Assembly: GCA_035476995.1 (NCBI GenBank)
Contig: DATIKY010000344.1
Span: 4,550-68,549 of the forward strand
Direction: 5' to 3'
DNA from: Sedimentisphaerales bacterium
GTDB lineage: Bacteria; Planctomycetota; Phycisphaerae; Sedimentisphaerales; Anaerobacaceae
DNA: 64,000 nucleotides
In this document: piece by piece, positions 32,478-50,460 of the stretch
Numbering within the stretch: the stretch's first letter is position 1
Layout of the letters: every line of letters starts with the position of its first letter
Position numbers and translations under genes: made by a program
Notes under the pieces: model-generated
The model's database searches: none
Told to the model about the DNA's origin: nothing
What the model saw: only the letters and a program-made list of their open reading frames with translations

Positions 32478-33131
32478 TCAGCGAAGGTTTCTTCGCCGAA
32501 CCAGACCGACCACGAAGGAACCCAGACCCGTCAACAGCAGCGCGCCGGGGGCGGGAATCACCGCGGCGTTCAAGACCATGTCGCTGACCAGAAGGCCAAC
32601 CGGGTTTGCATGAGCGTACAACGGACCATTCACGACCCTGAACTCGAGGGTATTCCAATCGTCCAGGATGAAACCGGTATCGATCACGAAGCCCTCGAGG
32701 CTTTTGTAGCCGGCGGTCGCCCGCTCAATACCCGTCCACACATCGTTCAGGTAGATCTTCCCGAAGTCATCGGTCGCCCACTTGCCGGTGATCCAGATCT
32801 TCATATTTGCAGCATCATCCGACGAGAGATAGAACGACTGGGTGAACGAGTACGCACCGGGCGCATCGGTCTTGCTGCCCTGCGTGGGGGCAATCCACCT
32901 GCTGTCGGCCGGGGCAGGCAGCCACGCCGGGTGAGCCGTCACGGCCAAAGCGGGGGCCGGTCCGCTGGGCGTCACCAGCGTGTAGTGGGTGTCAGTCGCC
33001 CCACTGGCCAGCGGAACGAACGAATTGTCCACACCCGTGTTGTAAATCGTCGGGACAGCCATGGCCTGACCGCCGAGCACGCAGGCAATCACAGCCACCA
33101 CCAACATTCGAATCACTTTGACGTTCTCCAT
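32478..33131 (-). CDS. PEP-CTERM sorting-domain protein (small secreted exosortase cargo)
   Basis: The start was set at ATG 33129-33131 (AGGAGG-N6-ATG). Signal peptide MENVKVIRMLVVAVIACVLGGQAMA. C-terminus AAVIPAPGALLLTGLGSFVVGLVRRRNLR. Confidence 0.85.
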   Translation of the reverse strand: MENVKVIRMLVVAVIACVLGGQAMAVPTIYNTGVDNSFVPLASGATDTHYTLVTPSGPAPALAVTAHPAWLPAPADSRWIAPTQGSKTDAPGAYSFTQSFYLSSDDAANMKIWITGKWATDDFGKIYLNDVWTGIERATAGYKSLEGFVIDTGFILDDWNTLEFRVVNGPLYAHANPVGLLVSDMVLNAAVIPAPGALLLTGLGSFVVGLVRRRNLR

Positions 33132-33244
33132 AGTCATCCTCCTAAAAAAAACCAGGACAAATTCCGGGACGTCTGTCCAACGTAGGTCCGGACACGACCA
33201 CCGAAAGACGCACAAGCATCTACAGAAGCCCATCATTTTGAACC

Positions 33245-33273
33245 AGTATACCATGATTACGAAAGGATGTCAA
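33245..33273 (-). promoter_or_regulatory. near-consensus sigma70-type promoter with extended -10 (TTGACA-N17-TGg-TATACT on the minus strand)
   Basis: The minus strand reads TTGACATCCTTTCGTAATCATGGTATACT. On the plus strand this is TGTCAA 33268-33273 and AGTATA 33245-33250. It sits in an AT-rich gap about 110 nt upstream of the PEP-CTERM gene start. Confidence 0.5.
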
Positions 33274-33486: not shown

Positions 33487-35079
33487 TCACCGCGTCGCAA
33501 CGTCTGGCGGACCATCGCTCGGCACTGTCTTTCCGCGGCGCAGGCGGCCTGCGGCTTTGGCCCAGATCATCGCCAGATCCTGCTTGTCCTGCGGCCCGAG
33601 GCAGCATCCCAGAAGCACCGCGACATAGCACAGAGCGCCGGCCGCCACGCACAGCCCGACTTCGGTCCAGGTGTCAGGCACAACCACGCGCTCCAGGTAG
33701 ACCCACACCACCGCGGCCACGCACCCAGGGGCAAGCCCCGGAATGAGCGTCTTCTCAATCCAGGTTTCCAGTCTCACTTCCGCCAGGCGAAGCGCCAAAG
33801 GCAGCGTCAGAAGCACATCCGAGAGAGCCAGGACAACGAAGCTGGCCATGGCGGCCCCCATCGCGCCAAGGCCCCACCAACCCGCCAACACGAGAATGGC
33901 CACGACACCCACGGCTTGGGTCAGACACGCGCGAATCCCCAACGGCCGCATTTGCGCTTTGGCCGCCGAGATGCACCAAGCCATCCAGTTCCCAGAGGAC
34001 AGGATATAGCCAGCCAGCGTCAGCGACATGACGATCGCGCCCGCCGCATAGGTCTCGCCCGCGTACAGGCTGATCACCGGCCCCGAGTAGATGATGGCCG
34101 GCAGCGACACCGCCAGAATCACCCACGCCCCAACGCGGCCGCCCCACAAGTAGGCGTTCCTGAACCGCTCTTTGGCGCCCATCGCGTGCATTCCGGTAAT
34201 GATCGGGTGGATCGGCCTGGCCGCCACGTCGAACCACTGGTCCACCTGGCGACGCCCCATGGCCCCGATCTGATAGGAAGCGATGTCGATGGCCGAGCCC
34301 AGATGGTTCAGGATGAGCGGAGTGGCGTACTCTCTCGTCCTGGCGGCCAGCGCGACAAGGAAATTCCAGCCTCCGAACCCGGTGATGGCTCGCACCAGAT
34401 CCCATTGGACCGGGCGGTATCGGAATCTCAGGGCCGGGATCGCTCGCAAGGAAGCCATCAGATTGACCACGAGGGCGAACATCTGGGCAGCCACCATCGC
34501 CACCACCACCCACATCACGCGAGTGCTCACCAGAAGCAGCAAGGACAAGAGCACAACGGATTTCGTGACTTCGGAACATACCTGGATGAGGTTCGCCATG
34601 ACGAACTTCTGACGCACGTACAACCCAAGGCCCATCGGCCCACAGGGAAGCTGCACCGCCAGCGAGAAAAACAACAGGAACATCATGAGCCGCGCGTCCC
34701 CTATCAACTGCGGGGGAATCACCAGGATCCGGTCCACGAACCAGGCGACGAGCCCGCCGACGGCCAACAGCAACCCGCCAACGACAAACAACGGCGGGAC
34801 CATGGACGAGACGATCCGGCTGACCCGCTCATCATCTCCCCTGGCGTAAGCGTCCACCAGGTACCGCCCCAGGCCTGAGGTCAGAACCATCGTGAACAAC
34901 GGAACGAAGCCGACAATGGCCATGACGAGAGGATACAGGCTGTACTCGTCTGCGCTGACGCGCCGCAGCAAATGCTGGTGCAGCCACACCAGGACCGAGA
35001 ACTGCAGCACCTGCGCAGCGATGGAACTGGCGGAGTTGATGAACAACAGTCGTTTGCTGATTTCGACTCGAGATGCCAT
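33487..35079 (-). CDS. wzx: Wzx-type oligosaccharide flippase (MOP/polysaccharide biosynthesis protein family)
   Basis: 530 aa with about 12-14 TM helices throughout. The N-terminus LLFINSASSIAAQVLQFSVLVWL is typical of the PST/MOP family. It lies in the EPS locus. Confidence 0.8.
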   Translation of the reverse strand: MASRVEISKRLLFINSASSIAAQVLQFSVLVWLHQHLLRRVSADEYSLYPLVMAIVGFVPLFTMVLTSGLGRYLVDAYARGDDERVSRIVSSMVPPLFVVGGLLLAVGGLVAWFVDRILVIPPQLIGDARLMMFLLFFSLAVQLPCGPMGLGLYVRQKFVMANLIQVCSEVTKSVVLLSLLLLVSTRVMWVVVAMVAAQMFALVVNLMASLRAIPALRFRYRPVQWDLVRAITGFGGWNFLVALAARTREYATPLILNHLGSAIDIASYQIGAMGRRQVDQWFDVAARPIHPIITGMHAMGAKERFRNAYLWGGRVGAWVILAVSLPAIIYSGPVISLYAGETYAAGAIVMSLTLAGYILSSGNWMAWCISAAKAQMRPLGIRACLTQAVGVVAILVLAGWWGLGAMGAAMASFVVLALSDVLLTLPLALRLAEVRLETWIEKTLIPGLAPGCVAAVVWVYLERVVVPDTWTEVGLCVAAGALCYVAVLLGCCLGPQDKQDLAMIWAKAAGRLRRGKTVPSDGPPDVATR

Positions 35080-35259: not shown

Positions 35260-36051
35260 TCATTCGCCGTGTCCGGCTGCTTCCGGAAACGGGGTCGCCT
35301 CGTCCGAGGCCTCCGCCGCGAGTACGCGCCCATCCTGGTCAGGCAAGTGGGCGAAGACCACGTCGGCAATGTCCGAGGCCAGAGCCTTGGCGGCCTGTTC
35401 GGTGACCGAACTGACTTGGACCTGAGCCACATAACGCGCCGGATCGCCGGCCAGATTCGGCCGGCGGCCGAGCCAGCCCGAGAAATCCTTCTCGCTCAAT
35501 GTGACTCGTCCGTTCAGGACGTAGTAGTTCAGCACGTAGATTCGCTCAAAAGTAGGCGCCGGCTTGCGGAAGCAGTGGATCAGACAGTCCACCGTCCGGC
35601 CGGACCAACTGACCACCTGAGAAGAAATCGTGCTTTCCCAGATCCAGCCGCTCCCGGGATAACACCGCTGGGGCCGGTGTCCGATAATCCCGGACAGGCG
35701 GGTCGCACAGTAGACGACGTACAGGTTGCCCCCCAGGCGCTCGGTCAGGTTGACGTATCTGCGGTTCACATAGTCATCCGCGAAATTCCGCTCCATGTAG
35801 AGCAGGGTGCCGGCTTCGATCTCCAGGTCCTGGCCCTCCCAGTTGCCGATCCGGGCGGGGATCCGGCTCAACGGAATACACAACTCGATATGGTTGTCCG
35901 CGGACATCTTCCAGCGACGGACAAGATACCGATACGCCAGGCCGCCCGCGACCAACACCACCACAGCGACGACGGTCGCCATGACCGCGGTCACAGCCCC
36001 AATGCTCCGATGCTCTTCGTTATGTCGATGCCTCATAGGCACAACCTGCAT
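35260..36051 (-). CDS. epsI: EpsI-family exosortase-associated protein
   Basis: It has an N-terminal TM helix (AVTAVMATVVAVVVLVAGGLA). The EpsI-like core reads IPARIGNWEGQDLEIE ... YVNRRY ... LYVVYCATRLSGIIGHRPQRCYPGSGW. The start is ambiguous (ATG 36051, GTG 36042 or ATG 36036). Confidence 0.75.
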   Translation of the reverse strand: MQVVPMRHRHNEEHRSIGAVTAVMATVVAVVVLVAGGLAYRYLVRRWKMSADNHIELCIPLSRIPARIGNWEGQDLEIEAGTLLYMERNFADDYVNRRYVNLTERLGGNLYVVYCATRLSGIIGHRPQRCYPGSGWIWESTISSQVVSWSGRTVDCLIHCFRKPAPTFERIYVLNYYVLNGRVTLSEKDFSGWLGRRPNLAGDPARYVAQVQVSSVTEQAAKALASDIADVVFAHLPDQDGRVLAAEASDEATPFPEAAGHGE

Positions 36052-36343
36052 TCCTTAGAAACAGGGGTACGCATACCTGCGTATCCCCCGGGTGGTACGC
36101 CCGTTATCGATCAGCACCACAAGTCAGGACGAAATGTGAGGCAGCCGGACCCTGCATGCCAACCCCCTGCTATCCGTCAGTTCATTTGTGTCGCCGTTGG
36201 GCTATTATCGACGCAGCCACAAGGAAACTCAAGCAAAAAAGCAGCCGGTCTCTGCCCCCCCGCCGGCACGAAAGTCCCCATCGTCCTATCTCCTGCCACG
36301 CGAGGCCTCCGGAACCCCGGAGATCGCCAACCGGCATTATGGA

Positions 36344-36373
36344 TTGTCGCCGAGGCAGTTTATTTGCTACAAT
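36344..36373 (+). promoter_or_regulatory. sigma70-type promoter candidate, TTGTCG-N18-TACAAT
   Basis: TTGTCG at 36344-36349 and TACAAT at 36368-36373. It lies about 70 nt upstream of the ATG of the 1491-aa protein, in the divergent gap shared with epsI. Confidence 0.3.
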
Positions 36374-36443: not shown

Positions 36444-39400
36444 ATGGCAATCAGGCAGTCGAACAGGCATTGTTACGGCGGAGAACGGACCGGTCACACT
36501 ACGCGTCGCTCCGCCCCTTGGCATCACTGCATTCTGCCGCTCCTGCTGATGGGCATGGCGATTCCCGCTCGGGGAGCAACCTATTATCTGAACACCACCA
36601 CCGGCAGCGTCGACAATCCCGGCTCCAACGCCCAGCCGTGGAGAACCCTGGATCAAGTGCAATCCAAGGCCGGGGAAGGCGACACCGTCGTCATCCAGCA
36701 GGCGGATGCAGCGACCTACGCAGCCCTGTGGCCAAGCCACGTCTCCTACCGGGCCGACACGATCCAACAGTTCGGCATCACGTGGAAATTCAGCGATTAC
36801 CGCCCCGTCGGACAGTTCGCCAACGGCGATTTCTGGGTCGTCGGGCCGGTGACCATCGTTGGGATCCTGCCGCAATCGACCTCCGTGGACGGGCGAATCA
36901 TGAACGGGACTATGATCAATCCAAGTCCCAAGGAAAAGTCGCAGGGCTACGACAATTCCATGTATGCCAATACCTATTCGCCAGCATTGAACGTGGCGTT
37001 CAACCGGTCGCCCAGCAACCCACTGGTCGTACAGCCGGGCTCCTCGCTGGTCTCGACCATCAGCATGCCCGGCGCAGGCGTAATTCCGCAGTTGCAGCGA
37101 GCGGCGGTCCTGACGGTTCTGAACGCGCCCGCTCCGACGGGAAGTTTCAGGCCCGCCTACTCCGGCACGGACAAGACGGTTCGGTTCAACAAATCGGACC
37201 TGAACTACGCGATTCTCCGGCGTCTGCCTGCGGTCGCGAATACCCCGACTCTCGGTTCCGTGGAGGCCCTGTTCGCCGCGCCCTGGATCGACCACCAGCC
37301 GGGTTGGCCGCAGAGAATGCAGCACCCCAAACTCAACATGCCGGACTATGGACGCGAAATCCATCGGGACATCGGTATCGGGGGGTTGATGTTGCACCTG
37401 GACTTCACGCCGGAGCAGAAACAGACGCTGATGGTCCGCTACGTCCAACTGGGAGTTGATTTCTACGGAATCGTCAAGGCCGGAGGCACCTGGAACTGGG
37501 TCGGCGAAGGGGGGCACGGAGGGGGCCGCAAATGGCCTATCCTTTTTGCCGGCATGGTCCTCAACGACCTCGATATGAAAGCCATCGGCCAGAAGTCCGG
37601 CAACTATCTGTACAGCAACGGATATGGGCCTGGCAACTCACCTCCCGATTATGTTCATTTCGGCGAGGACGACCAGACCTTCTATGTCTCGGAGTTTGAC
37701 GTTGCCCTGACAAACGGACCCAAGTGGAATCCGGACACGCGTAGCGGTCCTCCTTCCCCCTATCTGCGATCCGACATCGGAATGCCGGAATGGGGTATCG
37801 AGCATTCGCACAATCCGCACAGAAGCGACAAGGCCTTCCATGCGATCTACCGAAATGTGGCTGGCCCTCCCTTCAACGGCACAGCACTGGCTGCGCTCCT
37901 GACGCCGGGGGCGAAGGCCCTGTGGAATCACAACGCCTACTTCGACTACACGGACCGCTATCAGGCGTTCACCGGCCCCGGCGGGGAGTACGCGGGCTAT
38001 TGGCACACATCCAGCGGCTTCGCGGACAGCATGTGGCACGCCTACCGCTCGCTTGGAGGGGCCGTCTGGCCGGCGACCGACGCCGGCGGCGCCCCGGTTC
38101 TATCGCCCATCGGAAATAGGCAGGTCCTGGTGGGCGAGACTCTCACGTTTGTCGCCAGCGCCGCGGGCAACGGGCTGACCTACACCGCCACAGGCCTGCC
38201 CGCCGGAGCGACGTTCACGAACGCGACGTTCGCGTGGACGCCGACGTCCGGCCAGGTCGGCAGTCACCAGGTCACATTCACCGTCAGCGACGGGCAGGCC
38301 CAGGATTCCGAGACGATCACGATCACCGTGTCGCGGCCGAACACGGCGCCTGTCCTGGGCAGCATCGGCGACAAGAGCGTGAACGAGAATCAGGCCCTGA
38401 GCTTCACCGTCAGCGGCACCGACGCCGACGGCGACTCTCTCACGTATTCCGCCACCGGCCTGCCGGGCGGCGCGACCTTCAACGGCCAGACGTTCTCCTG
38501 GACCCCCGGCTTCACGCAGGCGGGGTCCTACTCGGTGACCTTCACCGTCAGCGACGGCAAAGCCCAGGCTTCCAGGACGGTCGCGATCTCGGTCGCCGAC
38601 GTCAACCGGGCGCCCGCCCTGGCGTCCATCGGGGATCGATCGGTCAGCGAGGACAACACGCTGGCTCTGACTCTCTCGGGAACCGATCCGGACGGGACCG
38701 TCCTGACCTACTCGGCCACGGGGCTTCCCGCCGGCGCGACGTTCGCAGGCCAGGACTTCCGTTGGACGCCGGGCGCGGAGCAGGTCGGCTCGCACCAGAT
38801 CACGTTCACCGTCAGCGACGGCTCGCTGACCGCCTCCGAGACGATCGCCGTCATGGTCGTTGGCGCCGGCCCGGACACGGCCGCCCCGGTCGTGGCCAGG
38901 CAATCCCCGGCGCCGGGAACGATCCAGGTGCCGCTGAACAACCTGATCACGTTCCACGTGACCGACGCCGGCAAGGGAGTCAACGTCTCGTCGGTGACCG
39001 TCACGCTGGACGACCAGATCATCTACCAGGGCAACACGCCCCTGTACACCAGCGCCCGGGGCCGGTGTATCCGGTCGGGCTCCAAGAACGACTATCGATT
39101 CACCTATCAGCACAACGATCTGTTCGACTTCGACCATGAGATTCGCATGACGGTCAACGCCGCCGATCTGGCGGGCAACGTCATGAGCCCGACGACGTAT
39201 TCCTTCTCGACCGAGATGCGGACCTTCGCAAGCAACCGTCGCGTCAGCCAGACCGGCGCCCTCGCCAAGGGATCGCCGGCGACGGTGGGCGACGCGGCCG
39301 GCAACATCTGGGCGGCCTGGCACGCGGGTCCCGTCGGCGCCAGGGACATCTTCCTGGCGCGGATGGCCGCGGGCCAGGACGGATTCGATGCCCCAGTCCA

Positions 39401-40919
39401 GATCACGAACCATCCGCTCGATCAGTGCGATCCGGACCTCGCGTTGGCCGACGACCGGACCCTGTACGTGGTCTGGCAGGACAACCGCAAGGGCGATTGG
39501 GACATCTACGCGTCGGTGAGCGCCGACAGCGGGCTGACCTTCTCGAAAGAAACCGCGGTGGTCGACGCCGACGACAATCAGACCGCTGCGGCGGTGGTCG
39601 CCGACGGCGCCTCGCCCAGCCGGGTCTACGTCGCCTGGCAGGACGACCGCAACGGCAATCAGGACATCTACGTCGCCCACTCGGCCAACGCCTTCGCCAG
39701 CGCGACCGTGTCTCGCGTCACGACGAATACCGCTGACCAGACGGAGCCGGACATCGCCGTTGACGCGGGCAACACGGTCTACCTCGTCTGGACCGACAGG
39801 CGAAGCGGACAGGCGGATCTCTACGCCGCGGCTTCAAACGCCTCGTGGACGAACGTCCCGGTGATGACCGACGCCGGCGATCAGACGAGCCCGGCCCTGG
39901 CCGTGACTGCGGGAGGTTCCACCGTCCACCTGCTGTGGGTGAACCGCGTCTCGGGCAATGCGGACGTCTGCTACGCGTCGTCCAACGGCCTTCCTTCGTC
40001 CCCGCTGACCGGCGTGAGCATCATCGACGACACCACCGGCGCCGACCAGACCGCGCCGTCCGTCGCGTGCGACGCCGCGGGCAAAGTCTTCGCCTGCTGG
40101 CAGGACGACCGCAACATCGGCCCGTACGGGGCGGACACCGACGTCTACTTCACCGAACTCAGCGACGGCGCCGTAAAGACGAACGTCCTGCTCGGCGACG
40201 GCGGCGCCCGGGGCAGCCAGACCGAACCGGCCATCGCCCTGAGCACGGACGGCCAGCCTTACATCGTCTGGGCGGATTCCCGCAACTCATCCTCGGATAT
40301 CTACTGCGCCGCGACGACGTATCTGGACTCGACCCCGCTGTATTCGGCCCTGATCAATCCCGACGCACAGACCACGATCGGAACCGCGCCGGCCGCGATT
40401 ACGCGGGCCTCGGACGTCTCGATCGTCGTGCCGGCGGGCGCCTGCCTGAGCAGCGTCCGAGTCAGCATCTCGAAGATTCTCAACCCGATCGTTTCGCCGG
40501 ACGATTGCCTGGGCAGCTATGATTTCGGGCCCAGCGGCATCGAGTTCAGCCAGCCGGTCACGGTGACCATCCCCTACCAGGCCGACGCCGCCAACCGCCA
40601 GGCGCGGGCCTACTGGTACAACTCCCTGACCGGCGCTCTGAGCCAGCAGGGCATCACCGACATCGAGACTATCGCGATCAGCGGCGACCTCTACGCCCTG
40701 CAATTCAAGACCACGCACTTCACGCCGTACTATCTCGTCGCCAGCGATGCGGAGGTCATGGCCTTCGCGGGCGCCGACGGCAACGGCGGCTGTTCCATGT
40801 CCGCCACCGGCGGCGGTTCGCCCAGGCACCTGCTCGTCCCGTACGCCATCGTGGTCGTGTTCATGGCGATCCTGCGGCACAGAGACAGAAGAAGAGCGGC
40901 CGAACGCATCGGATCATGA
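36444..40919 (+). CDS. large secreted multidomain surface protein: unknown N-terminal domain, 3 cadherin/Ig-like repeats, beta-propeller-like repeats, Cys-containing C-terminal sorting-tag-like tail
   Basis: The start was set at ATG 36444 (the ORF-track start at 36156 adds 96 non-protein-like residues). Signal peptide WHHCILPLLLMGMAIPARGA. The three ~85-aa repeats read LTY.ATGLP.GATF....F.WTP...Q.GS..VTFTVSDG. There are 6-7 units of type DQTEPDIAV...VYLVW.D.R.G..DIY. The tail is GADGNGGCSMSATGGGSPRHLLVPYAIVVVFMAILRHRDRRRAAERIGS. Confidence 0.85.
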   Translation: MAIRQSNRHCYGGERTGHTTRRSAPWHHCILPLLLMGMAIPARGATYYLNTTTGSVDNPGSNAQPWRTLDQVQSKAGEGDTVVIQQADAATYAALWPSHVSYRADTIQQFGITWKFSDYRPVGQFANGDFWVVGPVTIVGILPQSTSVDGRIMNGTMINPSPKEKSQGYDNSMYANTYSPALNVAFNRSPSNPLVVQPGSSLVSTISMPGAGVIPQLQRAAVLTVLNAPAPTGSFRPAYSGTDKTVRFNKSDLNYAILRRLPAVANTPTLGSVEALFAAPWIDHQPGWPQRMQHPKLNMPDYGREIHRDIGIGGLMLHLDFTPEQKQTLMVRYVQLGVDFYGIVKAGGTWNWVGEGGHGGGRKWPILFAGMVLNDLDMKAIGQKSGNYLYSNGYGPGNSPPDYVHFGEDDQTFYVSEFDVALTNGPKWNPDTRSGPPSPYLRSDIGMPEWGIEHSHNPHRSDKAFHAIYRNVAGPPFNGTALAALLTPGAKALWNHNAYFDYTDRYQAFTGPGGEYAGYWHTSSGFADSMWHAYRSLGGAVWPATDAGGAPVLSPIGNRQVLVGETLTFVASAAGNGLTYTATGLPAGATFTNATFAWTPTSGQVGSHQVTFTVSDGQAQDSETITITVSRPNTAPVLGSIGDKSVNENQALSFTVSGTDADGDSLTYSATGLPGGATFNGQTFSWTPGFTQAGSYSVTFTVSDGKAQASRTVAISVADVNRAPALASIGDRSVSEDNTLALTLSGTDPDGTVLTYSATGLPAGATFAGQDFRWTPGAEQVGSHQITFTVSDGSLTASETIAVMVVGAGPDTAAPVVARQSPAPGTIQVPLNNLITFHVTDAGKGVNVSSVTVTLDDQIIYQGNTPLYTSARGRCIRSGSKNDYRFTYQHNDLFDFDHEIRMTVNAADLAGNVMSPTTYSFSTEMRTFASNRRVSQTGALAKGSPATVGDAAGNIWAAWHAGPVGARDIFLARMAAGQDGFDAPVQITNHPLDQCDPDLALADDRTLYVVWQDNRKGDWDIYASVSADSGLTFSKETAVVDADDNQTAAAVVADGASPSRVYVAWQDDRNGNQDIYVAHSANAFASATVSRVTTNTADQTEPDIAVDAGNTVYLVWTDRRSGQADLYAAASNASWTNVPVMTDAGDQTSPALAVTAGGSTVHLLWVNRVSGNADVCYASSNGLPSSPLTGVSIIDDTTGADQTAPSVACDAAGKVFACWQDDRNIGPYGADTDVYFTELSDGAVKTNVLLGDGGARGSQTEPAIALSTDGQPYIVWADSRNSSSDIYCAATTYLDSTPLYSALINPDAQTTIGTAPAAITRASDVSIVVPAGACLSSVRVSISKILNPIVSPDDCLGSYDFGPSGIEFSQPVTVTIPYQADAANRQARAYWYNSLTGALSQQGITDIETIAISGDLYALQFKTTHFTPYYLVASDAEVMAFAGADGNGGCSMSATGGGSPRHLLVPYAIVVVFMAILRHRDRRRAAERIGS
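38094..38864 (+). repeat. three tandem ~255-nt coding repeats (cadherin/Ig-like domains) inside the large surface-protein gene
   Basis: The protein repeats start PVLSPIGNRQV.., APVLGSIGDKSV.. and APALASIGDRSV... Each ends ..VTFTVSDG....S.TI.I.V. Confidence 0.8.
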
Positions 40920-41671
40920 GTCGATTTGCAGGTTCATTCCGTCACTGGAGCAGCGACGCCGGGCCGTGCGCGATCGCCGGATCGGCGCCGCTGCCGGTGC
41001 CGACCCCGTCGATCCGTCCGTCGGCGTCGCTGGTCCTGGAGACCGCAGCGGTGGCGATCGCGGCAGTGGCCGCTGTGCGGTTGCTCCATGTGCACCGACC
41101 CTTCGGTCTCCACTGGCTCCTGATCCCGTGCACGCTGGCGGTCGCCGCCCTGGCGCCCGCGTGGATCGCCCGGAGGGATTTCCCTCCTGTGGGCCTGCGC
41201 GTCGAAACGATCGGTCCGTCGCTGCGGGCCACGGCGGTCGTCTGCCTGTGCGTCCTGCCGCCGGTCTATATCGGACTGTGGCTGCTGACCTGCCGGGGCG
41301 TTCCCATCCCGCTGCGTCCGAGTCTGGCCCCCGGCGAAGACCGGCTCAGTTGGCTGCTGTACCAGTTCCTGTACGTGGCGGCGGCCGAAGAAGTATTTTT
41401 CCGCGGATATCTCCAGGCCAACACGATGAGACGGCTCGGCGAAAGCCGTCTGTCCCCGCCGGCCCGGCGGTGGATCGCGATCGCGATCTCCGCGGGCGGT
41501 TTCGCCCTGGCGCACGTCGTGGTCCAGGGTCAGATAGTATCGGCCCTGACATTCCTGCCCGGCCTGCTCATGGCCTGGCTGTTCGTGAGAACGCGCTGCC
41601 TGCTGGCGTCCATCCTGTTTCACGGCCTGGCCAACGTCTCCTATGGGATCATGGCCGCGATCCTGGCCTGA
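40916..41671 (+). CDS. CPBP-family (CAAX-protease-like) intramembrane glutamic endopeptidase
   Basis: All three CPBP motifs are present: AAAEEVFFRGYLQ (EExxxR), GGFALAHV (FxxxH) and SILFHGLANV (HxxxN). The protein is polytopic. Its ATG (40916-40918) overlaps the TGA of the upstream gene (ATGA). Confidence 0.85.
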   Translation: MSRFAGSFRHWSSDAGPCAIAGSAPLPVPTPSIRPSASLVLETAAVAIAAVAAVRLLHVHRPFGLHWLLIPCTLAVAALAPAWIARRDFPPVGLRVETIGPSLRATAVVCLCVLPPVYIGLWLLTCRGVPIPLRPSLAPGEDRLSWLLYQFLYVAAAEEVFFRGYLQANTMRRLGESRLSPPARRWIAIAISAGGFALAHVVVQGQIVSALTFLPGLLMAWLFVRTRCLLASILFHGLANVSYGIMAAILA

Positions 41672-41895
41672 TTCCTCGCGCGGAGGTGCTTATCGGGGCT
41701 TGCTGAAGTTCCGGACACGCGGGGACCGATAAAACCCTGCCCGACGGAACAAGGCCGACCCACACGGCACAAGCTCCTCGTCCGGCGCCATTCGAATCAA
41801 GTGCATACCCCCACGCGACGATGAACGCTGTGGCAAAACTACGTGCGGGTCTTCCCTGACGCGGGATTTCCCCGGAGGAACCCCATCGGAAGAGG

Positions 41896-42753
41896 GTGTC
41901 AATGAACGAGAAACGAGTCATTCGAGTCGTCTGGCTGGTCAAGGCTTCCCTCGTGGCCGCGTTGGTCTACGGCGGCTTTCGCGCCGCCATGGACCACCTG
42001 CACGTCGCGGCGTTCGACCCGGCCGCCGCGGTCGGCGAGGAACCTCTGCCGGACGCCGGTCCGGAGGCGACCGGTCCCCGATCCTCCGCGGACTATGAGG
42101 GAATTCTCCAGAGCAACCTGTTCTCCGCGACGGACCCGCGGAAGGTTCAGGCCCTGGATTCCATGCCCTCGGCGGAGGAACTGGGCCTGCGTCTGGTGGG
42201 CTCCATCGCCGGCGGACCGGCCATTTCCCGAGCCAATATCCAGGACACCAAAGGCAAAACCACCGGCGTGTACCGAATCGGCGACACCGTCGCCTCGGCC
42301 ACGATCGAAGCCATCCAGCAGGACGCGGTCGTGCTCCGGCACGAAGGCCGTCAGTTGATCCTGCGGCTGCGAACCGGGACCGCCGGAGGCGAGACGCCTT
42401 CTTCCGGGTCCATGCTTCCAACGACTCCCGAGAAGGCCCCGACCCCGGCCCAGAAGGCGGCGATGCCCCCGGTCAAAGCCGACTACGTCGCGGAGGTCTT
42501 TCGCAAGGCGACCATCGAACCCTATGTGAAAAACGACCGGACCGAGGGTCTGCGAATCACCGGTCTGGACAAAATCCCCATGGCCGAACTGTTCGGCCTG
42601 CGAAACGGCGACGTCATCCGAAAAGTCAACGGCCAGCAACTGACGAGCAAACAGAAGGCGTTCCAGGTCCTGATGAAAGCCCGGACGCAATCGAAGGTGG
42701 ATATTGAACTGTTACGCAACGGCAAAAGCAAAGATCTGTCATTCGGTCTCTAG
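41896..42753 (+). CDS. gspC: type II secretion system protein C (GspC, TM anchor + PDZ domain)
   Basis: N-terminal anchor VVWLVKASLVAALVYGGF. An HR-like segment reads LRLVGSIAGGPAISRANIQDTKGKTTGVYRIGDTVASATIEAIQQDAVVL. The C-terminal PDZ region reads GLRITGLDKIPMAELFGLRNGDVIRKVNGQQL. It lies immediately upstream of gspD. The start could instead be ATG 41902. Confidence 0.75.
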   Translation: MSMNEKRVIRVVWLVKASLVAALVYGGFRAAMDHLHVAAFDPAAAVGEEPLPDAGPEATGPRSSADYEGILQSNLFSATDPRKVQALDSMPSAEELGLRLVGSIAGGPAISRANIQDTKGKTTGVYRIGDTVASATIEAIQQDAVVLRHEGRQLILRLRTGTAGGETPSSGSMLPTTPEKAPTPAQKAAMPPVKADYVAEVFRKATIEPYVKNDRTEGLRITGLDKIPMAELFGLRNGDVIRKVNGQQLTSKQKAFQVLMKARTQSKVDIELLRNGKSKDLSFGL

Positions 42754-42757
42754 CACG

Positions 42758-44995
42758 ATGGAGGGCACCGTGAACCCACAACCTCTTCGCAACCCAAGGC
42801 AGCCTCGCGGCAATGCGCCGCACGGACGCCGAACCGCCCTGTTGACGCTGACGGTCCTGGTCCTGACCGCCGCGACGGGCTGCCAGACGCAGAAGGAAAA
42901 CGCATCCGCTTCGTCAGTCCCCGTGCCGCAGAGGGAGCGACTCGGGCAAAGTCCCACGGTCCCTGCCGTCGAACCGGCGCGCGTCGAGCCCGCCCCTGCG
43001 ACCCAGCGCATCACCGGCGCGTCCCCGAAAGACAGCCCCAGCCGCCGATGGCTGACCGAAGAAGTCGTCAGTCCCGTCGAGTTCGGCTCGCCCCAGCCCC
43101 CGGCCAAAACGCCCAAACCCGTGGAGCTCGTCGCGGTCCCGTCGCAGCCGCCCCTGCAACCGCAGGCGGCGGTCCCGCCTCAAGCCATGCCTTCGCTGAG
43201 GCCGGGCATGGCCGACGAGCCCGTTTCCGTGAACTTCGACAATGTCGACATCCGCACGGTCCTCAAGACCATCGGCGACATCACCGGCATCAACTTCATT
43301 CCGCATGAAAGCGTCACCGGCAACGTCACCGTGATGTCTCCGACTCCGATCCGGCTGGGCGACCTCTACGCCTTCCTGCAGTCGATCCTCGACGTGCGCG
43401 GCTACGCCACGATCGAGATGGACAACGCGGTCAAGGTGGTGCCCAAGGCCGACGCGGCCCGACACCACTTGCAGGTTCGGATCGGCGCCGACCCGGCCTT
43501 CATCCCGAAGGTCGACATGGTCGTCACGCAGATCATGCCGCTGAAGTACGCGGACGCCGACGAAGTCCGCCAGATCATCGAACCCATCATCTCGACCGGC
43601 GCACAACTGGCGACGTATCCGCGGACCAACTCCCTGATGATCACCGACACCTCCGCGAACATCCGTCACATCGCGCAGGTCGTTCAGCAGCTCGACGTCG
43701 AAGGTTCGCAGGAAAAGGTGCTGACGTTCCCGTTGACCCACGCGTCGGCCCGAGTGCTCAGCGAACAGATCACGCGGATCCTGGAGAGAAACCGCAGCGC
43801 GGGCCCCCAGACCGGTCGCATTTCGCCCGGCGGCGGGATGACCGGCGCAAGGATACTCCCCGACGACCGGACCAACTCGCTGATCGTCATCGCCGGCGAG
43901 CAGAACACCGAGATGATCCGTGGCCTCGTCGAACAGCTCGACATTCAACGACCCGTCGGCGTCAACAACGTCCACGTGGTGTACCTCAAGAACGCCGACG
44001 CCAACGAGGTGGGCCGCTCGCTCGACCAGGCCATGGCGGGTATGAAGCTGGCCGGGGCGGTCGAGGCTTCCCAGCAGGTCCAGATCACGCCCGACCCGAG
44101 CACCAACGCCCTGGTCGTGGTGGCCTCGCCGCAGGATTTTGAGGTGGTCTCGCAGATCATCGAGAAGCTCGACATCGTTCGCGACCAGGTGCTGGTCGAG
44201 ATGCTGATCCTCGAGATCACGGAGGAATCGCTTCGAGAGATCGGCATCGACTGGGCCACGCTCGACAACGCGGTGGCCGACAGCGTGCGAGGCTTCGGCA
44301 TGACCAATCTCGGCCCGCGCGTGGACTTCCTCAGCGGAACCTCCGAAGGGCTCAACGTCGGCGCCTGGCGAGGAGGCGCCGGCGGCGCGCAGATCGGCGC
44401 CATCCTCCATGCCCTGCAGAAACAATCGGGCGTCAACATCCTCTCGACGCCGTCGATCCTGACGTCGAACCACCGCAAGGCCCAGATCATCGTCGGCGAG
44501 AACCGCCCGTTCGTCACCGAGTCCCGGATCACCGAGAGCACCGATCCGATCAACCCGACGGTCATCAAAAGCTTCGAATACAAGGACGTGGGCATCACGC
44601 TGGACATCACGCCGCACGTCAGCCAGGGCGGCCTGATCCGACTCGAAATCGACAGTGAGTTCACCAAGCTCATCGAGGACGTCACGACCCTCTCGATCGA
44701 CACCCCCGCCACCGCCAAGCGTACCGCCCAGACGGTCGTCACGATGGGCAGCGGCGCGACGGTCGTCATCGGCGGTCTGATCCGCGACGACACGACCCAC
44801 GCGGTCAAGAAGATCCCCCTGTTCGGGGACTTGCCCCTGGTCGGGTCGATGTTCCGCTCGGAGCGAAACCGAACGCAGAAGACGAACCTCCTGCTGTTCA
44901 TCACGCCGCACGTGATGTCGACCCAGGAGGATCTGGTCAACATGAGCGAGAGAAAGAGGCAGGAAATGACCTTGGCCCAGCCAAAGGACAACTGA
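42758..44995 (+). CDS. gspD: type II secretion system secretin GspD, with lipoprotein-type signal and Pro-rich N-terminal extension
   Basis: The start was set at ATG 42758, 4 nt after the gspC stop. LLTLTVLVLTAATGCQTQ is lipobox-like. The N0 domain reads VSVNFDNVDIRTVLKTIGDITGINFI. The secretin core reads ILSTPSILTSNHRKAQIIVGENRPF and ATVVIGGLIRDD....KKIPLFGDLPLVGSMFRS. Confidence 0.9.
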   Translation: MEGTVNPQPLRNPRQPRGNAPHGRRTALLTLTVLVLTAATGCQTQKENASASSVPVPQRERLGQSPTVPAVEPARVEPAPATQRITGASPKDSPSRRWLTEEVVSPVEFGSPQPPAKTPKPVELVAVPSQPPLQPQAAVPPQAMPSLRPGMADEPVSVNFDNVDIRTVLKTIGDITGINFIPHESVTGNVTVMSPTPIRLGDLYAFLQSILDVRGYATIEMDNAVKVVPKADAARHHLQVRIGADPAFIPKVDMVVTQIMPLKYADADEVRQIIEPIISTGAQLATYPRTNSLMITDTSANIRHIAQVVQQLDVEGSQEKVLTFPLTHASARVLSEQITRILERNRSAGPQTGRISPGGGMTGARILPDDRTNSLIVIAGEQNTEMIRGLVEQLDIQRPVGVNNVHVVYLKNADANEVGRSLDQAMAGMKLAGAVEASQQVQITPDPSTNALVVVASPQDFEVVSQIIEKLDIVRDQVLVEMLILEITEESLREIGIDWATLDNAVADSVRGFGMTNLGPRVDFLSGTSEGLNVGAWRGGAGGAQIGAILHALQKQSGVNILSTPSILTSNHRKAQIIVGENRPFVTESRITESTDPINPTVIKSFEYKDVGITLDITPHVSQGGLIRLEIDSEFTKLIEDVTTLSIDTPATAKRTAQTVVTMGSGATVVIGGLIRDDTTHAVKKIPLFGDLPLVGSMFRSERNRTQKTNLLLFITPHVMSTQEDLVNMSERKRQEMTLAQPKDN

Positions 44996-45041
44996 TGTTC
45001 CGAGCGGGCCTTCGCCGGGCGCCGGCAGAAATCTTCAGACG

Positions 45042-46661
45042 GTGAGATCCCAGGGGAGCCAGGGAGTGATCGAACGGACAGACAACCGACAGCGGCATCC
45101 GATCCGCCCCGAGCAACTGAGCTCGGAGTTGATGCGACGACTGCCCCTTGAGTTTCTCAAGAGGCAACGGGCGATCCCCATCCTCCTGGAGAAGAATGAG
45201 CCGGCGGTGGCGTTGGCCGATCCGCTCAATATCGGCGCCTACGACGCGATCGTGGGCATCCTGGGCCGGCCCTGCCGCCGGGTCCTTTGCGAGCCGTCCG
45301 AGATCGAACAGGCGATCAGCCGATGCTACTACCTCAGCCCCGGCGAGGAAGACAACTACTTCACGCCCGATGCGCCGGAGTCGTCGGGACAAACCGACGC
45401 GCCCGCGTCGTCCGTCCAGGACCTCGCCAGCAGCGTCCAGACGCGGGCGGAGGACCTGCTCAACATCGCGGACAAGGCGCCCGCGATCAAGCTGGTCAAC
45501 AAGATCCTGTTCCACGCGGTGCACAGCCGGGCCAGCGACATCCACATCGAGCCCTACGAGCAGGAGGTGAAGATCCGTTTCCGCGTCGACGGCGTCCTGC
45601 GGAACATCCTGAGCCTGCCGAAGATCCAGGTCAGCCCGATCCTCTCGCGGCTCAAGATCATGGCCAATCTGAACATCGCCGAGCACCGCCTGCCCCAGGA
45701 CGGACAGAGCCGCGTCAGCATCGGCGACGAGGTCGTCGATATCCGCGTCTCGGTGATTCCCACCGCCGGCGGCGAGCGGGTCGTGCTGCGACTGCTCGAC
45801 AAGGGACGAGGCGAGCTGAAGCTCGAAGAGATCGGCTTCGGACCGGACCTGCTCAAGACGTTCCGCAGCCTGATCGCGGTCTCGCACGGGATCGTCCTGA
45901 TCACCGGCCCGACCGGCAGCGGCAAAACCACGACGCTCTACGGCGCCCTGAATGAGCTCAACAGCCAGGAACGGAACATCCTGACCGTCGAAGACCCGGT
46001 CGAGTACCAGTTGCCCGGCGTCGGCCAGATGCAGGTGCATCCGAAGATCGACCTGACGTTCGCCAGTTGCCTGCGTCACATCCTCCGCCAGGACCCGGAC
46101 ATCATCATGATCGGCGAGATTCGCGACCGCGAGACCGCCGAGATCGCAATCCAGGCCTCGCTGACCGGGCACCTCGTGCTGAGCACCCTGCACACGAACG
46201 ACGCCGCCTCGGCCTTCACGCGCCTGATCGACATGGGGATCGAGCCCTACCTGATCTCCTCGACCGTCGTCGGCGTGATGGCCCAGCGGCTGGTTCGCGT
46301 GATCTGCCCGAGCTGCAAGCAGCCGCACACGCCGCAGGAGGGAACGGTCTCCTGGAGCGAGTTGGAGAAAATCGCCACGGGATTCATCCGGTTGCACAAA
46401 GGCGCCGGCTGCGAGAAGTGCCTCGACAGCGGGTACAGGGGCCGCACCGGCATCTTCGAGCTGCTGCTCGTCGACGACCCGATCCGGGACATGATCGTCC
46501 GGCGGCAGGCGTCCCACGTCATCAAGGAAGCGGCCGTCCGGCACAGCATGACGACCCTGAGAAACGACGGACTGCGGCGGGCCCTGGAGGGAGCCACCAC
46601 GCTGGAAGAGGTCTATCGCGTGACGCAGGACAGCGTGCAGATCGGACTGGAGGGAAACTGA
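45042..46661 (+). CDS. gspE: type II secretion ATPase GspE
   Basis: Walker A is GPTGSGKTTT and Walker B is DPDIIMIGEIRD. Also LTGHLVLSTLHTND and a tetra-Cys motif CPSCKQ...CEKC. An alternative in-frame GTG start lies at 45066, with GGGGAG upstream. Confidence 0.9.
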   Translation: MRSQGSQGVIERTDNRQRHPIRPEQLSSELMRRLPLEFLKRQRAIPILLEKNEPAVALADPLNIGAYDAIVGILGRPCRRVLCEPSEIEQAISRCYYLSPGEEDNYFTPDAPESSGQTDAPASSVQDLASSVQTRAEDLLNIADKAPAIKLVNKILFHAVHSRASDIHIEPYEQEVKIRFRVDGVLRNILSLPKIQVSPILSRLKIMANLNIAEHRLPQDGQSRVSIGDEVVDIRVSVIPTAGGERVVLRLLDKGRGELKLEEIGFGPDLLKTFRSLIAVSHGIVLITGPTGSGKTTTLYGALNELNSQERNILTVEDPVEYQLPGVGQMQVHPKIDLTFASCLRHILRQDPDIIMIGEIRDRETAEIAIQASLTGHLVLSTLHTNDAASAFTRLIDMGIEPYLISSTVVGVMAQRLVRVICPSCKQPHTPQEGTVSWSELEKIATGFIRLHKGAGCEKCLDSGYRGRTGIFELLLVDDPIRDMIVRRQASHVIKEAAVRHSMTTLRNDGLRRALEGATTLEEVYRVTQDSVQIGLEGN

Positions 46662-46662
46662 G

Positions 46663-47847
46663 ATGCCCGTGCTGGAATCGGACTTCATGAACGACGTGCG
46701 GAGAGAGGCCGCCGCAGCCCGGCGACAAGCCCATCGGCCTGTCTCACCGGCCAGGCCCGGCAACGACATCCTGCGGCGGGCCGGCACGAAGGACCTGTGC
46801 CGGATCGCGAGGCAACTGTCGGCCCTGCTGCACGCGGGAATGCCCCTGGTGCCTGCGATGTCGGCCCTCGTCGAGCAGTTGGAGTGCCCCACGAACGCCA
46901 GGAGCGGGTCGTCCTCGCTGCGTAAGAAACCGCTCGTCCAGGCGATTCGGCAAGTCCGGGACGACGTGAACGAAGGCATGAGCATGGCCGAAGCCCTGGG
47001 CCGGCACCCCGGCGTGTTCTCGCCGCTGTTCGTCAGCATGGTCTCGGCCGGCGAGAGCAGCGGAGCCCTGGAGGAGGTGCTCGCACGCATCGCCGACATC
47101 CTGGAGAAACGAGTCCAGCTCGTCGGCAAGGTCAAAGCCGCGATCACGTACCCCACGGTCATGGCGACCGTGGCCGCGGCGGTCGTGGTGTTCCTGATCT
47201 CCTACGTGGTGCCCGGCATCACGCGGCTGTTCACCCAGATGAATCACGCGCTGCCCTGGCCGACGCGGTTTCTGATCTCGGTCAGCGAGTTCTCGCAGAC
47301 GTACCTCATGGTCTTTCTCGGCCTGTTCTGCGCAGCGGTGATCGGCCTGGCAGCCCTGCGACGGAACCGCGAAGGCAAGGCCTGGCTGGACCGCATCGTC
47401 CTGAAGCTGCCCTTGTTCGGTCCCCTGCTGTTCCGGCTGGAGCTGGCCCGACTGACGCGGACGCTGGGCACGCTGATGAAGAGCGGGTTGCCGGTGATGG
47501 CGGCGATGGAGATCACCCAGCGGGTGATTCAGAACAGCCTGATCGCGGAGGCGATGAAGACGATTCGCGAGTCCGTGCACAAAGGGGACAACATCGCCGG
47601 AGCGATGAAGACCACCGGCCTGTTCCCCCCGGTCGTATACCACCTGATCGCGACCGGCCAGATGTCCGGCAACATCGAGGACGGAATGATCGACATCGCC
47701 GAGATGTACGACGGCGAGGTCGAAGCCTCCGTGCGGACGCTCACCTCGCTCCTGGAGCCGGTGATTCTGCTGGTCATGGGAGGCATCGTGACGTTCATCG
47801 TGCTGGCGATTCTGTTGCCGATCTTCGAAATCAATCAAGCCTTGTGA
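46663..47847 (+). CDS. gspF: type II secretion inner-membrane platform protein GspF
   Basis: It has two GspF-type repeats (RQLSALLHAGMPLVPAMSAL; RTLGTLMKSGLPVMAAMEIT) and three TM helices. The C-terminus EPVILLVMGGIVTFIVLAILLPIFEIN is typical. The ATG lies 1 nt after the gspE stop. Confidence 0.9.
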   Translation: MPVLESDFMNDVRREAAAARRQAHRPVSPARPGNDILRRAGTKDLCRIARQLSALLHAGMPLVPAMSALVEQLECPTNARSGSSSLRKKPLVQAIRQVRDDVNEGMSMAEALGRHPGVFSPLFVSMVSAGESSGALEEVLARIADILEKRVQLVGKVKAAITYPTVMATVAAAVVVFLISYVVPGITRLFTQMNHALPWPTRFLISVSEFSQTYLMVFLGLFCAAVIGLAALRRNREGKAWLDRIVLKLPLFGPLLFRLELARLTRTLGTLMKSGLPVMAAMEITQRVIQNSLIAEAMKTIRESVHKGDNIAGAMKTTGLFPPVVYHLIATGQMSGNIEDGMIDIAEMYDGEVEASVRTLTSLLEPVILLVMGGIVTFIVLAILLPIFEINQAL

Positions 47848-47866
47848 CAAGTAAGGACGTTTGAGT

Positions 47867-48316
47867 ATGAACCAATCACCAATCATCAATCATCAATCAT
47901 CCATGCCCAAGGGGTTCACCCTGATTGAGCTGATGATCGTCGTGGTCATCCTGGGCTTACTGGCGACGACCGTGATGCCCAAGATCCTGAGCAGGCCGGA
48001 CCAGGCTCGCCAGACCAAGGCCACCGTCGACATCCGCGCGATTCAGTCCGCCCTGGCGATGTTCAAGACCGACGTCGGACGCTTTCCCACGACGGCCGAG
48101 GGCTTGCAGGCGCTCGTCGCCAATCCCGGACTCAAGGGGTTCAACAGCGACGGCTACCTCGAGCGAGTGCCCGCCGATCCCTGGGGAAATCCGTACATCT
48201 ACATCAGCCCCGGCCTGCACAGCAAGGATTACGATCTGAAGTCCCTGGGCAAGGACGGCGAAGACGGCGGCACAGACAAAGACGCCGACATCGAAAGCTG
48301 GAACCTCCAGGGCTAG
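47867..48316 (+). CDS. gspG: type II secretion major pseudopilin GspG
   Basis: The prepilin signature is KGFTLIELMIVVVILGLLA. The GspG core reads DIRAIQSALAMFKTDVGRFPTTAEGLQALV ... DPWGNPYIY. ATG 47867 has AAGGA 9 nt upstream and gives a 16-aa leader. The alternative start ATG 47903 gives a 4-aa leader. Confidence 0.9.
   Translation: MNQSPIINHQSSMPKGFTLIELMIVVVILGLLATTVMPKILSRPDQARQTKATVDIRAIQSALAMFKTDVGRFPTTAEGLQALVANPGLKGFNSDGYLERVPADPWGNPYIYISPGLHSKDYDLKSLGKDGEDGGTDKDADIESWNLQG
47871..47905 (+). repeat. tandem heptanucleotide repeat (A[C/T]CAATC x4, plus a degenerate fifth copy) at the 5' end of gspG
   Basis: ACCAATC ACCAATC ATCAATC ATCAATC ATCCATG, read directly. The last copy contains the ATG at 47903. 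Confidence 0.8.
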
Positions 48317-48348
48317 ACGCGGGAAACCGTCGGCAACGAGGAGGGACG

Positions 48349-50442: not shown

Positions 50443-50460
50443 AGACGCCGAGGACGCGTC

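Follow-up and report, generated by a model that had tools for sequence, protein, structure and literature searches.

Introduction

Sorting systems in which a C-terminal tag built around a cysteine is served by an Mrt-type CPBP protease as sortase are already known as a kind (Haft, bioRxiv 10.1101/2023.06.07.544157; Guo, Haft and Wall 2025, PMC11980579). Proposed in 2023, they have received experimental proof only with Myxococcus MrtX, in 2025: cleavage of MYXO-CTERM by MrtX was shown to depend on the Cys, and Cys-dependent cleavage of a tag has been shown only for MrtX and TraA (PMC11980579). In the related JDVT-CTERM/MrtJ system, the genes of the tagged protein and of its protease adjoin one another in 16 of 17 cases (bioRxiv 10.1101/2023.06.07.544157). 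Proteins with MYXO-CTERM or GlyGly-CTERM depend on a type II secretion system (T2SS) to get to the cell surface, and phylogenetic profiles associate Synerg-CTERM/MrtS with a divergent T2SS. Here we examine a locus in a 64,000-nucleotide (nt) stretch of DNA from a Sedimentisphaerales bacterium (assembly GCA_035476995.1, contig DATIKY010000344.1, positions 4,550 to 68,549; hereafter the window), in which the gene of a large secreted protein, which we call the cargo, overlaps the gene of a CPBP intramembrane protease and a T2SS gene cluster follows.

An earlier note on this DNA had read the end of the cargo and the protease as a tag/sortase pair, found outside the usual taxon of such pairs and carrying a motif variant of its own. 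Our analysis leads us to regard it as likely that the cargo ends in a tripartite sorting signal of ~46 residues that contains a Cys, and that the overlapping gene encodes the cognate processing enzyme, a myxosortase-like CPBP protease.

Results

The cargo ends in a Cys-containing tripartite tail

Open reading frames (ORFs) of the window were derived mechanically and not from gene calls. The pair consists of the following features.

36444-40919, forward strand: cargo gene, 1491 amino acids (aa) from the ATG at 36444, a large modular secreted protein
40779-40802, forward strand: signature motif G-N-G-G-C-S-M-S, a sorting-tag motif with the sole Cys of the tail (TGT, 40791-40793)
40803-40829, forward strand: Gly/Ser-rich spacer ATGGGSPRH, which sets the helix at a constant distance from the Cys motif
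40830-40874, forward strand: hydrophobic transmembrane (TM) segment LLVPYAIVVVFMAIL, with a conserved Pro-Tyr at its start
40875-40895, forward strand (segment to 40916): basic cluster RHRDRRR with a conserved Asp, followed by a short variable end
40916-40919, forward strand: ATGA overlap, with the cargo stop within the CPBP start codon
40916-41671, forward strand: gene of a CPBP (Rce1-like) glutamic intramembrane protease, myxosortase-like, 251 aa, PF02517 66.4 bits

The cargo ORF terminates in ...GADGNGGCSMSATGGGSPRHLLVPYAIVVVFMAILRHRDRRRAAERIGS before its TGA stop codon (40917-40919). The layout of this tail, its TGT codon, the RHRDRRR cluster and the ATGA overlap had all been described in the earlier note, and each was found where that note had placed it. 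A signature motif, a TM helix and a basic cluster thus follow one another at the extreme C-terminus of proteins whose N-termini are signal-peptide-like, which is the tripartite layout of a sorting signal. In the predicted model, the TM region of the tail forms a helix at fragment residues 197-227.

Related tails preserve more than this general layout. In an alignment of fourteen of them, the stretch between Cys and basic cluster needs no gap; Gly, Cys, the Ser at Cys+3 and the Pro at Cys+16 are invariant in this alignment, and the Tyr at Cys+17 and the Asp at Cys+31 are nearly so. The consensus of the family starts with GGGGC[SAD][VIML]S, and the whole tag follows the pattern of this motif, about 4 residues, G, 3 residues, [EQ][FYL]x[LV]PY, the helix, and [LI][KR]x[RK]DxR. 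When 1.84 billion protein representatives were searched exhaustively with a 47-position tail profile, 136 cluster representatives were recovered, 51 of them at E <= 1e-10, and 135 of the 136 were matched at the extreme C-terminus or close to it. Only P0239 departs from this, with an internal multi-stretch match that looks spurious; in P0230, 37 residues extend past the tail match. Full-length tail proteins measure 1000-3451 aa and have signal-peptide-like N-termini. Only 12 gene calls, each a short fragment of the same cargo family, came from a word-indexed search that used the tail alignment, and a scan of the 64-kb window found no other ORF with a Cys tail of this type.

The length of the Gly run ahead of the Cys ranges between 2 and ~13 residues among the tails (L012-L022, L088-L167, P0121-P0264); GNGGC, in the window, is of the short form. 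Among the database entries for the tail are many short fragments that start at or near this run; possibly they arise from a GGC-rich repeat that breaks assemblies or gene calls.

No NCBIfam 20.0 model, MYXO-CTERM and JDVT-CTERM included, matched the window tail at E <= 10. Ten of the 14 related tails match JDVT-CTERM weakly (7-20 bits, cut-off 27), and nine relatives re-scanned individually gave 7.3-19.8 bits. These alignments cover model positions 1-17, that is the Gly/Cys motif, with a single exception that spans the whole model at 8.3 bits. To MYXO-CTERM (TIGR03901), one related tail scored 9.5 bits against a cut-off of 20. The window tail as either MYXO-CTERM or JDVT-CTERM was accordingly rejected, as it matches neither model and its relatives stay under the cut-offs. 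Judged by its residues and spacing, the tail is a distinct putative tag whose Cys-to-helix spacer is longer than in known Cys tags. The motif variant that the earlier note had surmised, in the Sedimentisphaerales/Phycisphaerae lineage, is borne out by these results.

Proteins that bear the tail vary widely in their N-terminal domains; about 90% of the tails follow the same ZU5-like domain. A few stand on proteins without that module (P0249, P0256 and P0264), and P0192 is a Calx-beta protein. P0249 (L081, 4929-5795) and P0192 (L083, 919-4536) represent a second cargo type, in which an AGEVTGxRDLP N-terminal region is combined with the Cys tail. This suggests that the tag may be portable and that some genomes may have more than one client.

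The overlapping gene encodes a myxosortase-like CPBP protease

All three CPBP motifs named in the earlier note are present in the downstream protein: EEVFFR (41387-41404, residues 158-163), FALAH (41501-41515, residues 196-200) and HGLAN (41621-41635, residues 236-240). Their residues E158, E159, R163, H200, H236 and N240 are invariant among 30 members of the CPBP family. Residue 195 (41498-41500), just before FALAH, is Cys in more than 90% of the family (S-A-[GA]-C-F-A-L-A-H); the window protein and its nearest relative have Gly there.

At 66.4 bits against a gathering score of 22.4, the protein passes PF02517. Its seven top matches in NCBIfam 20.0 are all of the myxosortase family: Mrt_core (74.6 bits), MrtP (75.3), MrtC (72.2), MrtS (67.3), MrtJ (52.4), MrtZ and MrtX. 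Mrt_core (NF040914) is its best match by E-value and is matched by all 30 family members (best E = 7e-25), and the same Mrt-first ranking holds for every one of the 30. Non-Mrt CPBP models rank after the Mrt models, and the PEP-CTERM-associated TIGR03008 reaches 31.8 bits. The myxosortase affinity proposed by the earlier note therefore stands as far as PF02517 and the seven best matches are concerned, and fails as to formal membership, since all Mrt scores are under their cut-offs. We rejected the protein as a member of MrtJ, MrtS, MrtC/P/X or TIGR03008 on these scores. Because it fails every curated Mrt cut-off, it is, by profile comparison, a relative of the Mrt family rather than a certified member. 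The family has 761 database matches, annotated as generic CPBP/CAAX proteases, from Phycisphaerales and Sedimentisphaerales metagenome-assembled genomes (MAGs).

An AlphaFold model of the protease has eight helices (pLDDT 71). When compared with the PDB by Foldseek, its sole meaningful match was MmRce1 (4cad_F; probability 1.0, TM-scores 0.53/0.54, 229 columns). Fold comparison alone revealed MmRce1, as no PDB entry was matched when a sequence profile of the CPBP family was used. The model and the conserved residues point to an Rce1-fold enzyme that looks catalytically competent, and its nearest curated relatives would be the tag-processing Mrt proteases.

Tail genes and CPBP genes are linked

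A genome scan with the CPBP family yielded 22 orthologous loci (40-93% identity) and 58 control loci with distant CPBPs. The ortholog loci come from Sedimentisphaerales, Phycisphaerae and Planctomycetota MAGs (taxonomic labels as deposited), and 20 of the 22 were testable, having enough upstream sequence. The tail was carried by an upstream same-strand gene at 15 of the 20 testable ortholog loci versus none of the 58 control loci (Fisher p = 3.5e-12), and it is thus kept among relatives whose CPBPs share merely 40-93% identity. The -4 ATGA overlap of cargo and CPBP recurs in L001 and L002, the two genes are separated by +2 nt in L084 and by +6 nt in L086, and a start/stop overlap or a gap of <=7 nt was seen in several lineages.

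The same linkage was approached from the cargo side by a metagenome scan with five close tails, a sample biased to the 'EGNIVEF-LPY' tail subgroup. Among its 80 loci were 68 tail genes with >=700 nt of downstream sequence, and a CPBP ortholog came directly after 43 of the 68. Look-ups of P0164 and P0262 (weak profile match, E = 7e-4) showed the order cargo-CPBP-gspC-gspD-gspE-gspF in both, with cargo-CPBP gaps of 2 and 6 nt. No CPBP was found on the short contigs of P0192 and P0249. With 43 of the 68 tail genes followed by a CPBP and 25 not, and with P0164 and P0262 set against P0192 and P0249, the cargo-CPBP linkage is therefore strong, though with exceptions, and in some organisms there are probably two or more clients. 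The earlier note had staked its tag/sortase reading on the recurrence of such tails in relatives and on CPBP orthologs adjoining them. Both do occur, and the counts of 15 of 20 against 0 of 58, and of 43 of 68, support that reading.

A type II secretion cluster follows the protease

A T2SS cluster, gspC-D-E-F-G-K-L (41896-51981), begins 225 nt past the CPBP gene; the earlier note makes no mention of it.

41896-42753, forward strand: gspC (T2SSC and PDZ), GspC_delta 126.5 bits, cut-off 150
42704-44995, forward strand: gspD, secretin, TIGR02517 472 bits, cut-off of 351 passed
45042-46661, forward strand: gspE, ATPase, TIGR02533 646 bits, cut-off of 630 passed
46663-47847, forward strand: gspF, Pfam T2SSF 182 bits, TIGR02120 361 bits, under the cut-off of 424
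47861-48316, forward strand: gspG, major pseudopilin, TIGR01710 163.6 bits, cut-off of 88.85 passed
48895-50442, forward strand: gspK, NF037980 133 bits, cut-off of 130 passed
50461-51981, forward strand: gspL-like gene, TIGR01709 44 bits, under the cut-off of 65

For GspC, GspF and GspL, Gsp models are the best matches though under their cut-offs, and the cluster looks complete from its gene content. The order CPBP-gspC-D-E-F-G is kept at 19 of the 22 ortholog loci, four of which (L003, on the complete chromosome OY970194.1, and L006, L015 and L018) have no adjacent tail gene. At L010, L094 and L122 the gsp genes point towards the CPBP gene from a few kb downstream; the cassette is thus rearranged there, with its parts still close together. 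A pattern scan, which is weak evidence, found no terminator-like site between CPBP and gspC (41672-41895). The spacer between these genes, ~225 nt in the window, is of similar length (about 190-350 nt) in most ortholog loci. Cargo, protease and T2SS would apparently form one transcription unit.

A ZU5/GAIN-like module precedes the tag

The last globular domain of the cargo stands directly before the tail, and it too goes unmentioned in the earlier note.

40323-40742, forward strand: ZU5/GAIN-like beta-sandwich, last globular cargo domain, Pfam ZU5 21.7 bits, gathering score 21 (marginal)
40716-40724, forward strand: H-F-T motif, candidate self-cleavage site between F and T, in the turn that joins the two final strands of the ZU5-like domain

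In a profile comparison with PDB sequences, this domain matched the ankyrin ZU5 domain at E = 1.2e-4. Its AlphaFold model (fragment residues 31-170) has a pLDDT mostly above 90, with one 10-residue block averaging 77, and Foldseek retrieved the ankyrin ZU5 (1.4e-4), the BAI3 GAIN domain (4.6e-4) and UNC5b, as well as the GAIN domains of CELSR1, BAI2 and CD97.

The H-F-T motif lies ~22 residues ahead of the tag Cys. A sequence of the form (F)KTTH-[FL]-[TS]-x-[FY] occurs 20-35 residues before the Cys in ~90% of tail-bearing sequences; H-F-[TS] is found in 112 of 144 of these and H-L-T in ~12 more, and the His is invariant in alignment A5. HF-S in PIDD and Nup98 and HL-T in the GPS self-cleave after the second residue, at the corresponding turn. 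The last domain of the cargo shares with the ZU5, GAIN(GPS) and Nup98 autoproteolytic domains its fold, the position of the motif and the chemistry of H-[FL]-[TS], and may likewise cleave itself between F and T of H-F-T. Ankyrin and UNC5 ZU5 domains, its best structural matches, do not self-cleave. To our knowledge, a ZU5-like domain with a Cys sorting tag ~22 residues downstream is a combination that has not been described. Bacterial ZU5 autopeptidases are known from polymorphic toxins and surface proteins (PMC3482391). The domain itself is therefore not new, whereas we found no earlier case of its standing right in front of a Cys sorting tag.

The cargo start and the remainder of the protein

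Further features at the front of the cargo gene are these.

36344-36373, forward strand: sigma-70-like promoter match, 9 of 12 positions with a TG extension, a consensus match only
36444-36575, forward strand: predicted Sec signal peptide with a basic n-region, the h-region WHHCILPLLLMGMAIPA and a cleavage site between ARG and AT, read from the sequence

The first ATG of the cargo ORF, at 36156, would give a protein of 1587 aa, in which the ATG at 36444 encodes M97. The latter has a GGGGG Shine-Dalgarno-like run 6 nt upstream and a signal-peptide-like N-terminus after it, and is the probable start; the length of 1491 aa given in the earlier note agrees with it. Homologous cargos have comparable, signal-peptide-like N-termini, and the predicted mature start ATYYLN resembles the A[TVI]YY[LV]D of relatives.

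Pfam recognizes three He_PIG/Big_9 domains, Big_5, a BNR-like domain and ZU5 in the cargo. The N-terminal domains differ among relatives, which have beta-helix, laminin-G, Calx-beta, InlB B-repeats or Ig-like repeats; the end, BNR-like, ZU5-like and tag, is constant across them.

Upstream neighbours and PEP-CTERM features

One gene upstream is divergent from the cargo.

35260-36051, reverse strand: EpsI-like (DUF3485) gene, Pfam DUF3485 51 bits, NCBIfam EpsI_fam 34.6 bits, under the cut-off of 42.8

An EpsI-like gene occupies the same position at no fewer than ten related loci, at least L001-L004, L008, L009, L013, L016, L017 and L084. Beside it lies a 530-aa ORF (33487-35079, reverse strand) that is conserved in L004, L008 and L009 and has no Pfam or NCBIfam match. 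An exosortase-type system may be coupled to the cargo locus. The earlier note had counted three exosortase cargos with an IPAPGA motif in the window; an exact [IV]PAPGA PEP-CTERM-like tail occurs in two ORFs only, 1321-1977 and 32478-33269, both on the reverse strand, the second of which ends in ...IPAPGALLLTGLGSFVVGLVRRRNLR.

Discussion

Comparison with described tag/sortase systems

JDVT-CTERM/MrtJ (NF033191/NF033192) is alike in its Gly-rich motif with a single invariant Cys, its TM helix with conserved residues and its Arg cluster. It is also alike in being dedicated, with the cargo gene usually adjoining that of the CPBP protease (16 of 17 cases in that system, 15 of 20 loci and 43 of 68 tail genes in ours). 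However, JDVT-CTERM has Asp-Pro at Cys+9, whereas here Cys+9 is G, N, D or S and Pro-Tyr stands at Cys+16/17. The MrtJ model comprises 98 positions, and the present protease has 251 aa and 8 helices and scores 52.4 bits against the MrtJ cut-off of 75. The known system belongs to Pseudomonadota and ours to Phycisphaerae, and only here does a T2SS operon follow the protease and the cargo belong mostly to one family with a ZU5-like module.

MYXO-CTERM with MrtX, MrtC and MrtP (TIGR03901; NF040593, NF040594, NF040674) shares the enzyme superfamily, with MrtP and MrtC among the nearest neighbours by hidden Markov model (HMM), as well as a Cys-containing tripartite tag and the use of a T2SS for surface display, which in our case would follow from gene order. 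In contrast to the locus described here, which usually has one adjacent client, it is a housekeeping system with dozens of clients that are never encoded beside the sortase. Its tag has a GCGC-type Cys pair, whereas ours has one Cys and a longer Cys-to-helix spacer, and the N-terminal half of its proteases is unlike that of the present CPBP. Because most tails stand on one cargo family, the arrangement looks mostly like a dedicated one-cargo/one-protease pair of the JDVT-CTERM/MrtJ kind, heading a T2SS cluster, rather than a housekeeping system of the MYXO-CTERM kind.

Synerg-CTERM/MrtS (NF040589; NF041616-NF041619) likewise joins a Cys-tag/CPBP pair to a T2SS, and MrtS is the fourth-best match of our protease. 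There the link to the T2SS is one of phylogenetic profile, whereas here it is physical, with the protease gene followed by gspC-D-E-F-G in the same orientation; moreover, GspC is nearest to GspC_delta and not to the Synergistota type (28.5 bits). With Rce1 (MmRce1, PDB 4CAD), the protease shares the fold, the EExxxR, FxxxH and HxxxN motifs, and a substrate Cys near a C-terminal cleavage site. The substrates differ. Rce1 acts on cytosolic proteins that finish in a prenylated CAAX box; here the protein is exported, and a TM helix comes after the Cys, which lies ~41 residues short of the C-terminal end.

A possible route for the cargo

If the tail is a sorting signal, the cargo would be exported by Sec through its N-terminal signal peptide and retained in the inner membrane by its C-terminal helix, whose Arg cluster would lie on the cytoplasmic side according to the positive-inside rule. 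The invariant Cys would then be modified, probably lipidated, as in the working model for MYXO-CTERM, which is hypothetical there too (PMC11980579), and the CPBP protease, by homology with MrtX, would remove the helix distal to the Cys. The downstream T2SS may finally carry the folded, lipid-tethered protein to the surface, as the conserved synteny and the T2SS dependence of MYXO-CTERM and GlyGly-CTERM proteins suggest. Optionally, self-cleavage of the ZU5/GAIN-like domain between F and T of H-F-T would leave the ectodomain held non-covalently on a lipidated stub of ~25 residues.

Weighing the explanations

Several observations weigh against a tag/sortase pair. The window tail matches no CTERM model, and the protease scores below every curated Mrt cut-off (Mrt_core 74.6 bits against 100, MrtJ 52.4 against 75, MrtS 67.3 against 130). 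The Cys lies 16 residues before the helix-opening Pro-Tyr, apparently farther than in the 34-35-position models of MYXO-CTERM and JDVT-CTERM, and the cleavage site of those tags is therefore not simply transferable. At five of the 20 CPBP-ortholog loci, no tail gene lies closer than 10 kb. Conversely, 25 of the 68 tail genes have no CPBP directly downstream; these fall in particular sub-clades, and in one example the next genes are those of an integrase, a helicase and DUF790. The synteny of CPBP with the T2SS (19 of 22) is tighter than that of cargo with CPBP, so that the protease could serve the T2SS more generally, and in the metagenome sample gspC comes directly after merely 14 of 25 cargo-CPBP pairs. 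We identified no enzyme for the Cys modification, and all the relatives are metagenome-assembled.

Some of these points would be expected if the CPBP protease were primarily a T2SS accessory, processing or regulating either a Gsp component or all T2SS substrates, and the cargo a co-regulated substrate, its tail serving simply to anchor or retain it in the inner membrane. The gspC synteny at 19 of 22 loci, including the four without an adjacent tail gene (L003, L006, L015 and L018), and the 25 of 68 tail genes that are not beside a CPBP both speak for such a role. We nevertheless think it improbable: the nearest curated relatives of the protease are all tag-processing Mrt enzymes, an invariant Cys at a fixed spacing would be needless in a plain anchor, and 11 of the 25 metagenomic cargo-CPBP pairs have no gspC directly downstream, so that the pair exists apart from an adjoining T2SS. 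Moreover, we know of no T2SS that needs a CPBP protease. Still less probable, in our view, is that the tail is the never-removed TM anchor of a giant adhesin-like protein and the CPBP an unrelated enzyme of self-immunity, bacteriocin processing or envelope stress. A hydrophobic helix followed by basic residues is, to be sure, the generic layout of a tail anchor, the window tail passes no curated sorting-signal HMM, and the functions of most bacterial CPBPs are unknown (PMC11980579). A plain anchor would, however, leave unexplained why G-G-C-S-x-S and Pro-Tyr keep a fixed spacing across 136 clusters and why the adjacency, with its start/stop overlap, is confined to this one CPBP orthogroup (15 of 20 loci, and 0 of 58 for other CPBPs), and no bacteriocin-like gene was evident among the neighbour genes scanned against Pfam and NCBIfam.

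The protease might instead belong to the PEP-CTERM/exosortase sphere, as a TIGR03008-like 'CAAX prenyl protease-related protein' that partners the EpsI-like gene and the PEP-CTERM proteins of the window rather than the Cys-tagged cargo. The EpsI-like gene is indeed a conserved divergent neighbour, two IPAPGA PEP-CTERM-type tails lie in the window, and TIGR03008 is among the weaker matches of the protease. Its 31.8 bits, however, are far under the cut-off of 81 and below seven Mrt models, the CPBP gene overlaps that of the Cys-tagged cargo and not a PEP-CTERM gene, and its orientation groups it with the cargo and gsp genes, which makes this explanation hardly credible to us. A tag with its sortase accounts better than any of these three alternatives for the Cys motif, for the adjacency peculiar to the orthogroup and for the HMM ranking.

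The tag/sortase reading can be carried one step further, to a surface-display cassette in which flagship cargo, sortase and T2SS apparently form one unit and the cargo is cut twice, by the Mrt-like protease after a lipidated Cys and by self-cleavage between F and T of H-F-T, ~22 residues upstream. This extension is tentative and, on present evidence, rather doubtful. If it were true, an ectodomain of more than 1400 residues would be held only non-covalently on a short lipidated peptide. This would be a bacterial counterpart of the tethered ectodomains of adhesion GPCRs and SEA-domain mucins, with regulated or force-dependent shedding possible.

Conclusions

The myxosortase preprint makes no mention of the Sedimentisphaerales/Phycisphaerae lineage, and we found no paper on CPBP, T2SS and a sorting signal in Planctomycetes, Phycisphaerae or Sedimentisphaerales. 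The tag/CPBP pair is covered by no curated NCBIfam 20.0 model, and its current annotation amounts to 'CPBP family intramembrane glutamic endopeptidase' and 'hypothetical protein' only. What is new here is the combination of a JDVT-like dedicated adjacency with a physical T2SS linkage and a ZU5-like module. The comparisons support the extension of a myxosortase-type mechanism, as predicted from the proteins and their gene order, to another phylum, Planctomycetota.

With the ZU5/GAIN-like H-F-T module so close to the tag, a second processing step becomes possible, of a kind unreported for any sorting-tag system. The lipidating enzyme, the exact cut site and the uptake of such clients by the T2SS are standing questions for Cys-tag systems as a whole. 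The locus offers a compact arrangement of cargo, protease and T2SS with a single dominant client and a sharply conserved tag (Cys, Ser at Cys+3, Pro-Tyr at Cys+16/17, Asp at Cys+31), and these questions are therefore directly testable with it, by co-expression and mass spectrometry.

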